NCBI GenBank assembly: GCA_028817405.1
Contig: JAPPPS010000089.1
Coordinates: forward strand, 9,947 to 73,946
Direction of reading: 5' to 3'
Source of the DNA: Gammaproteobacteria bacterium
GTDB taxonomy: Bacteria; Pseudomonadota; Gammaproteobacteria; Arenicellales; Poriferihabitantaceae
DNA: 64,000 nt
The notes below the pieces were generated by a model. That model was not told the DNA's origin and made no database searches. It saw only the letters and a list, made by a program, of their open reading frames with translations. This document shows positions 33,114 through 35,354 of the stretch, one piece after another (position 1 is the first letter of the stretch; the number at the start of each line of letters is the position of its first letter). Both the position numbers and the translations under genes were made by a program.

Positions 33114-34217
33114 TTAGCCGGCCCAGTAGCCGGCCGCTTTCAGTTTGTCGATGATGCCGCGCAACACGCTCGCGGTGTTTTGCGCGTGCTGGGTTCGCAC
33201 TTGAAATGTCTGCAGCGTGCCCTTCTCGCCTTTGTCGAACAGTTTTCCTTCGATGACCGAGGCTTGTTTGGATGCGCCGACCCAAATCCCTACCGTCGCG
33301 CGCTCTTCTCTGTGACCGAATTGCCCGAGCGCGATGCGCGTGATGCCGGCGACTTTCCACACCGCTTGAAACGCGGCGCGGGCGTCGGGCGACGGAATGT
33401 CGTCCAAACGTTTCACCGTCTTGCCCCAGATGGTGGCGTGCGCTTTTTTCCCGGCGAAGACGACTTTGTCGCGCGAATTCGATGCTGTTTTGCGCGCTGA
33501 CTTGCCGATTGGCGACGCGCGCTTGGCATCTCTGCGTCGCCGCCATGCGTCGGCGACGCCTTTGACCGCCGGCGCATAATCCGGGTCGGCTTCCAGTTCT
33601 TTCAAACTCGCCAACACCGCATCGTTGATTAACTTGGTCGGCAGTTGCTTGCCCAACTTGTGGTCGCTGTCGGTCAAGCGCTCGATGATGCGCGGCAGCA
33701 ACAACACCGGCGCGACGATGCCGTTGCGCCGGGCGCCGCGGCAAGCGCCGCGAATCGCTTCAACCAACTTCTCACGGTTGAATTCTTCGTCGCTGCGTCG
33801 GCCGGACTTAATCACCGTCCAGTTGGCGTTGGCGTGCAGAATGCGCAGCAGCACATTGGCGGCTTGCGTCGGCGTCTCTTCGATGACCGTGGCGTAGAAC
33901 TTCAGCGTGGTGTTGTTCATGTGGTTGGGGTCGGCGACCGCGACCGGGCGGCCGTTGCGGTGCGCATGCACGATGCCGAACGCCGAGCCGATGGACTCGC
34001 GCCACATGTTGACCAGCAAACCGTCCGCGGCTTCGACGGAGTCGATGTCGTTTTTGACCGCGGCGTAGGAAGAGGTCTTCTGCGTCTCGGTGGGGTCGAT
34101 GAAGTCCATGTCCTTGCCGAATCGCTGCTTGATTTCGTCGCGCCATTTGTGCTTTTGGCTGTCGTTGCAGCCGCTGATTGGGCCCGCGAGGTAGACGCGG
34201 AATTTGTGCCTGGACAT
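33114..34217 (-). CDS. Uncharacterised three-domain protein: nucleoside 2-deoxyribosyltransferase-like N-domain, ATP-cone-like middle, and an unknown C-domain
   Basis: KFRVYLAGPISG...ADGLLVNMWRESIGSAFGIVHAHRNGRPV is NDT/DNPH1-like. WTVIKSGRRSDEEFNREKLVEAIRGAC...DYAPAVKGVADAWRRRR is ATP-cone-like. Domain calls come from memory-based motif alignment. Confidence 0.7.
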   Translation of the reverse strand: MSRHKFRVYLAGPISGCNDSQKHKWRDEIKQRFGKDMDFIDPTETQKTSSYAAVKNDIDSVEAADGLLVNMWRESIGSAFGIVHAHRNGRPVAVADPNHMNNTTLKFYATVIEETPTQAANVLLRILHANANWTVIKSGRRSDEEFNREKLVEAIRGACRGARRNGIVAPVLLLPRIIERLTDSDHKLGKQLPTKLINDAVLASLKELEADPDYAPAVKGVADAWRRRRDAKRASPIGKSARKTASNSRDKVVFAGKKAHATIWGKTVKRLDDIPSPDARAAFQAVWKVAGITRIALGQFGHREERATVGIWVGASKQASVIEGKLFDKGEKGTLQTFQVRTQHAQNTASVLRGIIDKLKAAGYWAG

Positions 34218-34337
34218 GAGCGTGGTCTCCGGTGTGTTTGTTGCAAATTGCCGCTTGCGCGGGCCGCGTTAACCTATCACAACCGCCGCCGCAATTTGAC
34301 CGCGCGCGGCACGCAAACCGCGGCCGGCCGGGGCGGC

Positions 34338-34453
34338 CCGCCGCGGAATTCGCCGCCGCCCCCGCCGCGGAATTCGCAAAAAAGGCGTGAATGGGGGGCT
34401 TTTTTTGATGAAATTCACGCGATATTGACAAAAAGGCGTGAATGGGGTTAATT
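34338..34453. promoter_or_regulatory. Divergent control region with operator-like repeats and a putative promoter for the Fic gene
   Basis: CCGCCGCGGAATTCGC occurs twice (34338-34353, 34362-34377). AAAAAGGCGTGAATGGGG occurs twice (34379-34396, 34430-34447), and an inverted GCGTGAAT/ATTCACGC pair is present. TTGACA (34425-34430), 17 nt, then TTAATT (34448-34453) lies 8 nt before the Fic ATG. Confidence 0.45.
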
Positions 34454-34460
34454 TTGGGGC

Positions 34461-35354
34461 ATGACCGTCGCGCAAACCACCCGCCGGCAAATCCAGACTT
34501 TGCACGCCGAATTTACCGCCCTGAAACCGGGGCGGGAAGCGCTGCTTGCCATGATTGACGAGGCCGAGACGCCGGAGAATGTCTACAACTCCAACGCCAT
34601 CGAAAACTCCACGCTGACGCTGAAGGAGACCGAAAAAATTCTGCTGGAGATGGAACTGTCGCGCGATGTGTCGGTGCGCGAAGTGTTTGAGGCGAAGAAT
34701 CTGGCGCGCGTGATTGCTTACAAACGCGACAAAGCCAAGACTGAGGCGCTGTCCGAGGAACTGCTGTTGCTGCTGCACCAAATGCTGTTGGGCGGCATCG
34801 ACGATTCCATCGCCGGGCGGTTTCGGCGCGCCGGCGAGTATGTCCGGGTCGGCGCGCACATCGCCCCGGCGCCGGAACATGTGGCGCGCATGATGGAGGC
34901 GATTCTGCTGCAGTATGCGGCCGACATGGACGGTTATTTCTTGGACAAGATTGCAAAGTTTCATTTGGATTTCGAGACCATTCATCCGTTCTGCGACGGC
35001 AACGGCCGCATGGGCCGGGTGAGCATCAACTTCCAACTCATCGCGTTAGGTTTTCCGCGCGTGATTATCCGCAACAAGGACAAGCAAACCTACTACCGGG
35101 CGTTCCGCGACTACAACGACAAGCGGCGCACCCGGCCGATGGAAAAAATCCTGGCGCTGGCGCTGCTGGAGTCGCTGCACAAACGCCTCGCCTACCTGCG
35201 CGGCATGGAAATCATCCGGCTGTCCGAGCACATCCGGCGCAACCAACTGTCGGCCCCGGCCGTCACCAACGCCGCCCGACGCCAGACCATCCCGGCGTTC
35301 AGGGAAAAGGAAGTGTGGAAAATCGGCTGCGCCATGGCCGGCGCAACATCATGA
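34461..35354 (+). CDS. Fic-family protein (putative AMPylase), class II with an in-cis inhibitory helix
   Basis: Fic motif HPFCDGNGRMGR. N-terminal S-x-x-x-E-N (SNAIEN) matches the [ST]xxxE[GN] inhibitory motif. Confidence 0.9.
   Translation: MTVAQTTRRQIQTLHAEFTALKPGREALLAMIDEAETPENVYNSNAIENSTLTLKETEKILLEMELSRDVSVREVFEAKNLARVIAYKRDKAKTEALSEELLLLLHQMLLGGIDDSIAGRFRRAGEYVRVGAHIAPAPEHVARMMEAILLQYAADMDGYFLDKIAKFHLDFETIHPFCDGNGRMGRVSINFQLIALGFPRVIIRNKDKQTYYRAFRDYNDKRRTRPMEKILALALLESLHKRLAYLRGMEIIRLSEHIRRNQLSAPAVTNAARRQTIPAFREKEVWKIGCAMAGATS

Follow-up and report, generated by a model that had tools for sequence, protein, structure and literature searches.

Do two genes that face each other across a short, repeat-rich spacer work together, or have they only been brought together? 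The question is raised by a locus in the window, the 64,000-nucleotide stretch of DNA from a Gammaproteobacteria bacterium (Arenicellales, Poriferihabitantaceae) analysed here. One of the genes encodes a three-domain protein of 367 amino acids (aa), the other a class II Fic protein, and the first-pass annotation had taken the former for a nucleotide-sensing partner that regulates or complements the latter. The arrangement itself, a 367-aa open reading frame (ORF) facing the Fic gene across 243 bp rich in repeats, agrees with the ORF coordinates (Table 1). The explanation which we consider best, and fairly likely, is that the two genes are independent and were joined by insertion, the Fic gene being part of a self-contained mobile cassette and the 367-aa gene a solitary gene of sensor type.

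The order of events can be followed by translated comparison (tblastx) of the window with its relatives. In locus L006, from Ca. Poriferihabitaceae, the gene for a MocR-type regulator is followed after 25 bp by the 367-aa-family gene, and there is no Fic gene. In L134, from the 83% clade, the order is MocR, Fic (convergent with MocR), the 367-aa gene and a small downstream ORF, while in the window it is MocR, a block of 3.2 kb, Fic and the 367-aa gene, the block being absent from both L134 and L006. The MocR stop codon of L006 is found inside TGTGATAGGGTTA, just upstream of the 367-aa gene. In every locus of the clade the junction motif TGTGATAGGTTA still precedes the 367-aa gene, across Fic from MocR, and it is on the 367-aa-gene side of the insertion that the MocR stop junction TGTGATAGG has survived. 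Because of the empty site in L006 and of the stop junction on the far side of Fic, Fic and its control region appear to have been inserted into the 3' end of MocR, and the 367-aa gene would predate Fic. MocR of the window ends early (...ARRIRAS*), and a frame in the spacer (...PRAVKLRRRL*) has weak similarity to the MocR tail of L006 (...GRAEAKPLRDL*); this piece is probably a remnant of the MocR 3' end left by the insertion. The spacer would then be composite, with the Fic promoter and operator, junction DNA carrying a 24-bp duplication, and the old end of MocR.

The same conclusion is approached from the distribution of neighbours. Forty-four loci have a full 367-aa-family gene with at least 1 kb of upstream DNA, corresponding to 33 clusters at 80% identity, and a Fic gene lies upstream in two of the 33, namely the window's own clade and L014. 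Among 133 loci a Fic gene stands beside a family gene only in these two cases, and no other Fic motifs were found in roughly 1 Mb of flanking DNA examined. As to the co-occurrence of this architecture with Fic genes, the two are thus neighbours elsewhere, but only in L014 and with a different Fic. All-against-all clustering of the flanking ORFs of 58 loci gave no conserved neighbour; no flanking gene family occurs in more than seven loci, and those seven are syntenic close relatives. The immediate neighbours are mixed in 41 cases, and include housekeeping genes (aconitase, LpxB, RpiA, TctA) as well as genes of mobile or defence type (IstB_IS21, DUF772 transposase, HigB, AAA_14/DUF4143, NOV_C and several PADLOC candidate models). 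Since no neighbour is conserved and the immediate neighbours are mixed, we conclude that the 367-aa gene is in all likelihood solitary and sits at variable locations, and these counts do not support the partnership proposed at first.

The Fic protein is intact. Its catalytic motif HPFCDGNGRMGR (residues 175-186, nt 34983-35018) fits HxFx(D/E)GNGRxxR without change, the Pfam Fic model (PF02661) is matched with 72.6 bits against a gathering score of 24, and the closest solved relative is FICD (E 1.2e-20). In class II Fic proteins, by definition, an inhibitory (S/T)xxxE(G/N) helix precedes the Fic core within one chain (PMC10628234), and the SNAIEN motif (residues 44-49, nt 34590-34607), which aligns with the inhibitory TVAIEG of FICD and is invariant in 18 orthologues, supports the earlier class II assignment. 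In PADLOC the protein matches PDC-S04, which is a candidate system only (E 3.9e-34), and SoFic (E 2.6e-27). The C-terminal tail LSAPAVTNAARRQTIPAFREKEVWKIG is conserved, with the invariant family form LSAPAxTNAARRQTIPAFREKxVWKIG.

This Fic family is far larger than that of its neighbour in the window. At least 8000 matches were found for Fic, and full-length identity is 70-79% to Fic proteins of Parcubacteria, Falkowbacteria, Nitrospinota, Ca. Mycalebacterium and other Gammaproteobacteria. At five orthologue loci outside the window's clade, Fic stands next to unrelated genes, frequently ones of defence or toxin-antitoxin type (Table 1). No conserved small antitoxin ORF was found 3' of the Fic orthologues; the small ORFs present there in L139 and L222 are unrelated, and in the window there is no room for one. 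A scan of viral contigs for orthologues gave only relatives with at most 50% identity over the best segment (at most 38% beyond about 90 residues), so that no upstream regions were added from this source to the comparison that follows.

The upstream region of Fic was compared in eight loci (the window, L004, L134, L138, L139, L140, L221 and L222), which represent six contexts with different neighbours. The first-pass annotation had noted a TTGACA-17-TTAATT promoter just before the Fic ATG and a box present three times, once inverted, and both can be read directly from the DNA: seven bases lie between TTAATT and the ATG, and the box GCGTGAAT starts at 34385 (+), 34413 (-) and 34436 (+). Fic orthologues share this plan, with GTGAAT about 70 nt and ATTCAC about 45 nt before the start, then the -35 element, another GTGAAT and the -10 element, and, some 5-14 nt beyond the -10, the start codon, so the operator-like layout over a near-leaderless promoter is conserved with the orthologues. 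Single boxes vary in L138 (box 3 is GTTAAT) and L140 (box 2 is TTCAC), and L221 is cut by the contig end. Window-wide, GCGTGAAT occurs at chance level (six copies found, 5.2 expected); three of the six fall within 59 bp, and it is this clustering, together with their conservation in orthologous loci, that makes the boxes more than chance. They accompany Fic where no 367-aa gene is nearby, and in the window's clade boxes and promoter elements are invariant in a spacer that otherwise diverges. Since the same spacing recurs upstream of Fic with different neighbours and survives in diverging spacers, the GTGAAT boxes are best read as part of the Fic cassette, that is, as Fic's own control region. 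A generic promoter scan did not list the Fic promoter, because TTAATT lacks the A at position 2 of the -10. In the literature searched, no description of a triple GTGAAT box with a near-leaderless layout was found.

No protein except Fic is shared by these loci, whose hosts belong to distant phyla, and Fic is therefore the most economical candidate for a repressor binding the boxes; Fic is probably autoregulated through them. A shared host regulator was considered for the same role and judged unlikely, the hosts ranging from Parcubacteria to Gammaproteobacteria.

Other repeats in the spacer have a different history. The 18-mer is exact at both of its sites (AAAAAGGCGTGAATGGGG, at 34379 and 34430), as first described. 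The repeat reported as a 16-mer is real, but its length was underestimated, as a 17-mer (CCCGCCGCGGAATTCGC) is repeated exactly at 34337 and 34361; with up to two mismatches allowed, two matches were observed against 0.30 in shuffled sequences. The duplication is present only in the window and in the 98% identical relative L137, and absent from other orthologous spacers. The 17-mer was considered as an operator and rejected, as it is not conserved beyond L137. On the other side of the spacer, TTGTGATAGGTTA is found upstream of the 367-aa gene in all loci of the clade and in L006, where it contains the MocR TGA stop, and it is a probable extended -10 (TGnTAGGTT) of the 367-aa gene. Only the Fic promoter is overlapped by the boxes; that of the 367-aa gene is about 140 bp away from it. 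Beyond this local junction motif of the clade, no motif shared upstream of 367-aa-family genes was found.

There are 213 full-length homologues of the 367-aa protein, about 365-390 aa long, which in public records are unnamed or called 'hypothetical protein' or 'DUF4406 domain-containing protein'. The N-terminal domain of the protein had been likened to nucleoside 2-deoxyribosyltransferases (NDTs) and DNPH1, and its middle part to an ATP-cone. For the window protein alone all Pfam matches are below the gathering scores, with Nuc_deoxyri_tr2 over residues 6-95 (E 6e-4) and ATP-cone over residues 142-214 (E 1.2e-3); the bit scores, with gathering scores in brackets, are 20.5 (30) for PF15891, 17.8 (22) for DUF4406, 14.8 (28.8) for PF05014 and 19.7 (25.8) for the ATP-cone PF03477. 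Among 34 diverse family members, at E<0.01, the ATP-cone is matched in 32 (best E 1.6e-7) and Nuc_deoxyri_tr2 (PF15891) in 29 (best E 1.2e-7), and the divergent member P0278 exceeds the gathering score for both DUF4406 (25.0 against 22) and the ATP-cone (27.4 against 25.8 bits). The AlphaFold2 model, built on the family alignment, has a mean predicted local distance difference test score (pLDDT) of 82.9. The best Foldseek match to it is the Desulfotalea NDT 7o62 (E 1e-4, TM-score 0.77 normalised to the target), followed by many DNPH1/Rcl chains with TM-scores of about 0.7 and, more weakly, by the ribonucleotide reductase subunits 9d3x and 5olk, which carry ATP-cones. Both fold assignments, including a Rossmann-like NDT fold for the N-terminus, were therefore as claimed. 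Among PDB sequences the N-terminus comes closest to the NDT-like YtoQ (E 0.05) and the middle to the ATP-cone of NrdR (E 0.095), but neither match is significant. No match was obtained in NCBIfam or PADLOC scans, and neither an NrdR-type zinc ribbon nor a recognisable helix-turn-helix (HTH) was matched by Pfam or NCBIfam models.

Of the active-site features, the loops YLAGPISGC and S75-I-G77 are present, together with an invariant NMWRES motif that contains E74. Canonical single-domain relatives carry SIGTxxE(I/L)xYA, and alignment of the window's SIGSAFGIVHA with their SIGTVFELGYA places Gly81 at the position of the catalytic Glu, so the substitution noticed at first is genuine. Gly81 is at least 90% conserved in the 34 aligned members and the residue is Gly in a sister family as well, whereas E74, W72, N70, D65 and D41 are invariant across the 34.

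The C-terminal part, first described as about 130 aa of unknown nature, indeed has no known relative, and is better divided into a basic linker of 18 residues and a domain of 115 aa, here called domain X. The linker is rich in Arg and Lys, and both its length and its sequence vary across the aligned members. Domain X has the motifs KxHATIWG, DIPS..AR, GIT.I.LG.F and KGT.Q.FQV and a predicted secondary structure of beta, alpha, four beta strands and alpha; modelled alone with 21 homologous fragments, it reached a pLDDT of 87 and a predicted TM-score of 0.82. No Pfam model matched it in the window protein or in family members. Its profile gave only a non-significant partial match to a YTH domain among PDB sequences (E 0.07), and Foldseek returned nothing significant from the PDB (best E 0.086, TM-score <0.35) or from BFVD (best E 0.022, TM-score 0.45-0.55 over 78 columns). 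Searched against 1.84 billion representative proteins, the profile found only 91, mostly members of the 367-aa family. A few carry domain X (motif KSHxTIWG...DIPS) behind other N-termini, a YaaA (PF03883)-like one in P0319 and a region of no assigned type in P0261, or on transmembrane and long coiled-coil proteins (P0307, P0308 and P0311). Since it is also found at the C-terminus of these other proteins, domain X seems to behave as a rare mobile module. The converse is seen in a sister family of Acidobacteria from peat and soil (L056, L082-L087, L089 and L094; e.g. L082:2305-3528), which has an NDT-like domain with NMWRESIG and an ATP-cone that scores above the gathering score (33.5 bits), and ends in a coiled coil and a different C-terminal domain of no known type (...YPYVLYAFDGLRHL...GAGANDAVRRFL) instead of domain X. 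With domain X on other N-termini and the sister family with another C-terminus, the first two domains and domain X appear to be separable modules. No description of the whole architecture was found in the literature on ATP-cones with deoxyribosyltransferases, on YtoQ or on ATP-cones in defence, in agreement with what had been stated at the outset.

Taken together, joining of independent genes by insertion would work as follows. Fic and roughly 80 bp upstream would form the mobile cassette, encoding an AMP-transferase that its own SNAIEN helix presumably keeps inactive in cis, and would be transcribed from a putative promoter leaving almost no leader. Overlapping this promoter are the three GTGAAT boxes, two of them direct (the second lying between -35 and -10) and one inverted, and Fic itself may bind them as a repressor, perhaps through its invariant C-terminal tail. 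The cassette would have landed in the MocR 3' end directly upstream of the resident 367-aa gene, with the 3.2 kb inserted later. From its domain content, the 367-aa protein may act as an oligomeric nucleotide sensor, in which the ATP-cone would read ligands of the ATP/dATP type and domain X would serve as the output module. As the sugar-phosphate loops are kept and the Glu nucleophile is lost, the NDT/DNPH1-like domain probably serves to bind, and not to cleave, a nucleoside monophosphate-like ligand.

Some observations weigh against parts of this explanation. The Fic tail, as a carrier of DNA binding, resembles an HTH only in single orthologues and without significance (HTH_17, E 0.088; HTH_22, E about 0.2), and a profile search of the PDB with it came back empty. 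For the 367-aa protein, the invariant E74 of NMWRES could be a relocated catalytic residue, in which case the N-domain would be an enzyme instead of a sensor. Finally, in the acidobacterial locus L014 a 383-aa Fic protein, 30% identical to that of the window, is encoded divergently upstream of the family gene, in a cassette that also holds an XRE-type HTH gene. Its relative L019 (77-91% nucleotide identity to L014) has the empty site: in L019 the stop of the dienelactone hydrolase gene and the start of the family gene are 9 bp apart, and in L014 the 1867-bp insertion (L014:4126-5992 against L019:581-588) falls precisely between them. Two different Fic cassettes have apparently reached the same relative position in two phyla, for which the chance expectation, as a rough estimate, is about 0.05-0.1 such cases per 33 lineages. 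Because the window's clade has to be discounted as the source of the finding, this coincidence is suggestive and not significant. It also has a non-functional explanation: small selfish cassettes may land preferentially at the tight junction that precedes the family gene, or in the variable regions that this gene tends to adjoin.

The role of E74 leads to the alternative that survives best, which we regard as doubtful. According to it the 367-aa protein is an active N-glycosidase or transferase acting on (deoxy)nucleoside monophosphates or a modified nucleotide, with E74 in place of the missing Glu and the ATP-cone as allosteric site, and it may act as a single-gene defence or as a factor that sanitises the nucleotide pool. 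In its favour are the invariance of E74 and its companion residues, the conservation of NMWRESIG in the sister family, the retained fold and phosphate-loop residues, the variable locations, some neighbours of mobile or defence type (IS21, DUF772, HigB, matches to PADLOC PDC models) and a spread over at least six phyla. The nucleophile position, however, is occupied by Gly in the window protein, the sister family and nearly all members, PADLOC has no match for the protein, and many of the neighbours (aconitase, LpxB, RpiA) are housekeeping genes.

That the 367-aa protein is a nucleotide-sensing partner which regulates, neutralises or complements Fic, the divergent pair being a functional module, now seems improbable. 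The divergent arrangement is kept throughout the clade of 73-98% identity, an unrelated Fic cassette arrived independently at the same relative site in L014, Fic uses ATP and its neighbour has an ATP-cone, and Fic partners do exist, since SoFic has the small neighbouring antitoxin AS1 (PMC12249575). Against this, 31 of the 33 lineage clusters have no Fic neighbour, and at least 8000 Fic matches, beside unrelated genes, stand against 213 for the 367-aa family. Wherever it is found, Fic brings along an inhibitor in cis and an operator of its own; the boxes travel with Fic and overlap the Fic promoter only, some 140 bp from the other one, and the empty sites of L006 and L019 indicate that the 367-aa gene is older than the arrival of Fic by insertion. 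A related view, to which we give little credence, accepts a single-protein nucleotide sensor with an orphan-fold output, spread horizontally among sponge and coral symbionts, and adds that Fic cassettes are recruited repeatedly (twice here) through cooperation; AMPylation could, for example, be gated or counteracted by the sensor in response to the cellular ATP/dATP state.

Quite unlikely, too, is an NrdR-like regulator in which the ATP-cone sets the oligomeric state and DNA or RNA is bound by domain X and the basic linker. In its favour, no PDB sequence comes closer to the middle domain than the NrdR ATP-cone, the linker has many Arg and Lys residues, and domain X is fused in P0319 to a YaaA-like part, the YaaA family being reported to bind DNA, but the protein has neither zinc ribbon nor recognisable HTH, domain X matches no nucleic-acid-binding fold and is also found on membrane and coiled-coil proteins, and there is no shared upstream motif beyond that of the clade junction.

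The distribution of the 367-aa family is in itself of interest. The gene was found in 53 loci of the species-representative genome set, all of them in metagenome-assembled genomes and spread across at least six phyla: Ca. Poriferihabitaceae (order Arenicellales; best match, 62% identical), Ca. Spongiihabitans, other Gammaproteobacteria and Alphaproteobacteria, then Vicinamibacterales, Bryobacterales, Terriglobia, Longimicrobiales and Nitrospirales, and, more distantly, Fimbriimonadaceae and Planctomycetota. Members above about 40% identity are almost all from metagenome-assembled genomes whose names point to sponges or corals, in at least five phyla, and the distant members (about 35% identity) are from sludge and freshwater Fimbriimonadaceae and Planctomycetota. 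To judge from taxon and isolate names, the family thus seems to reside mostly in symbionts of the sponge and coral type, and the fact that the closer members span several phyla and share host-type names suggests horizontal spread within host-associated communities.

The surroundings of the locus were earlier taken for accessory DNA, and this agrees with the probable remnant of the MocR tail and with a fragment of a non-ribosomal peptide synthetase (NRPS) condensation domain in the second inserted block (Table 1). The fragment ORF, of 176 aa, covers only the C-terminal third of the domain (Pfam positions 268-434 of 456), and the G+C content is 46-54% at 37000-38600 against 62-72% for the genome; owing to the partial domain and the patch of low G+C, the ORF is read as what is left of a gene within foreign DNA. 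On the downstream side of the 367-aa gene, a gene for 111-113 aa is found in L134, L135 and L137 (tblastx identity to L134 64-71%); the hydrophobic 112-aa ORF of the window has no Pfam match and is not kept in more distant loci of the family. Neither the Rfam scan nor the tRNA scan gave a match anywhere in the window, and hence no riboswitch and no tRNA integration site in it.

Table 1. Features of the locus in window coordinates, with the Fic orthologue loci outside the window's clade given last
Feature	Position	Strand	Basis or remark
Gene for the 367-aa three-domain protein	33114-34217	minus	ORF list; 213 full-length homologues
NDT/DNPH1-fold domain, residues 1-132	33822-34217	minus	Pfam, Foldseek, alignments
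ATP-cone domain, residues 133-234 (WTVIKSGRRSDEEFNREKLVEAIRGACR...)	33516-33821	minus	Pfam, PDB sequence match, Foldseek
Basic linker, residues 235-252 (18 residues)	33462-33515	minus	pLDDT <50
Domain X, residues 253-367 (115 aa)	33117-33461	minus	confident AlphaFold2 model, no matches
Small membrane-like ORF, 112 aa	32713-33051	minus	downstream of the 367-aa gene
Spacer between the divergent genes, 243 bp	34218-34460		repeat-rich
TTGTGATAGGTTA motif upstream of the 367-aa gene	34270-34282	minus	former MocR stop-codon junction
Probable MocR 3'-end remnant	34277-34330	minus	weak translated similarity
Two exact copies of the 17-mer CCCGCCGCGGAATTCGC, 24 bp apart	34337-34377	plus	lineage-specific duplication
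Putative Fic control region	34379-34453	plus	three boxes with -35 and -10
Box 1, GCGTGAAT	34385-34392	plus	
Box 2	34413-34420	minus	
-35 element, TTGACA	34425-34430	plus	
Box 3, between -35 and -10	34436-34443	plus	
-10 element, TTAATT	34448-34453	plus	17 nt after the -35
Class II Fic gene, 297 aa	34461-35354	plus	Pfam Fic, PADLOC, FICD alignment
Second inserted block	35368-38546	plus	Pfam, G+C content, synteny
TauE, in the second block	35368-36156	plus	Pfam
GST, in the second block	about 36165-36782	plus	Pfam
NRPS condensation-domain fragment	37094-37624	plus	Pfam; patch of low G+C
EamA transporter	37605-38546	plus	Pfam; overlaps the end of the NRPS fragment ORF
MocR-type GntR/aminotransferase regulator gene	38603-40348	minus	Pfam; ancestral upstream neighbour of the 367-aa gene
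Fic orthologue locus L138			neighbour SocA_Panacea
Fic orthologue locus L139			neighbours HicB, HsdR
Fic orthologue locus L140			neighbours BrnT/BrnA, HamA (Hachiman) and helicase
Fic orthologue locus L221			neighbour PRiA4_ORF3
Fic orthologue locus L222			neighbours GmrSD, EcoRI-type methylase

Elsewhere in the window, about three copies of a tandem repeat of 42-48 bp lie at the glmU/glmS junction (30188-30326), where they encode a Gly/Asp-rich tail of GlmU and, in another frame, a Val/Thr/Pro-rich N-terminal extension of GlmS. GlmS also has a Gly/Asp-rich insertion (...GGDGGDGDGGGGG... and ...GDGDGDSETGDHGNQSNENRG...).

Overall, our data indicate that a plausible pair of toxin and sensor can be an accident of insertion, and relatives with an empty site settle the order of events here. 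They define a protein family that had not been described, in which an NDT/DNPH1 domain without its Glu is combined with an ATP-cone and a 115-aa domain without a known fold relative, and if the sensor reading is true, the ATP-cone controls in it an output that is neither ribonucleotide reductase nor NrdR. Concentration of the family in sponge- and coral-type symbionts of several phyla suggests exchange within such communities. The Fic gene, for its part, belongs to a widely transferred class II family of about 295 aa with what appears to be its own triple-box control region, which makes autoregulation by Fic directly testable.

It is instructive to compare both proteins with known systems. The N-domain of the 367-aa protein has the same fold as DNPH1/Rcl and the NDTs (PF05014, PF15891, DUF4406; 7o62, 4fyh, 8os9) and as YtoQ (8of6), and has in common with NDT and DNPH1 the Gly-rich YLAGP loop and an S-I-G loop aligned with the SIGTxxE of canonical relatives, but it differs from them in having Gly81 for Glu, in the NMWRES motif and in the fusion to an ATP-cone and an orphan domain. 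With the ATP-cones of NrdR and ribonucleotide reductases (PF03477; 7p37, 9d3x, 5olk) the middle domain shares V.K..G..E.F.R.K. and the helical bundle, while this predicted ATP-cone comes without a reductase subunit or zinc ribbon and has Ser for the second basic residue of the KR pair.

For Fic, the comparison is with the class II enzymes FICD/HYPE, SoFic, CbFic2 and PDC-S04, with which the window protein shares the catalytic motif and the N-terminal inhibitory helix. CbFic2 binds DNA through a C-terminal HTH domain (PMC10628234). Unlike SoFic and CbFic2, the window Fic is short, lacks DUF4172 and a winged HTH, and has an invariant tail of 45 aa without a recognised fold; unlike SoFic with AS1, loci of the window type have no small conserved ORF downstream of Fic. 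In the class I system VbhT/VbhA and in SoFic/AS1, as here, a Fic gene adjoins a second gene that is in principle able to modulate it. In those systems the partner is small, supplies or mimics the inhibitory helix and is co-inherited with Fic, whereas in the present locus Fic has its inhibitor in cis, its neighbour is a multidomain protein of 367 aa, and the two genes are not co-inherited.

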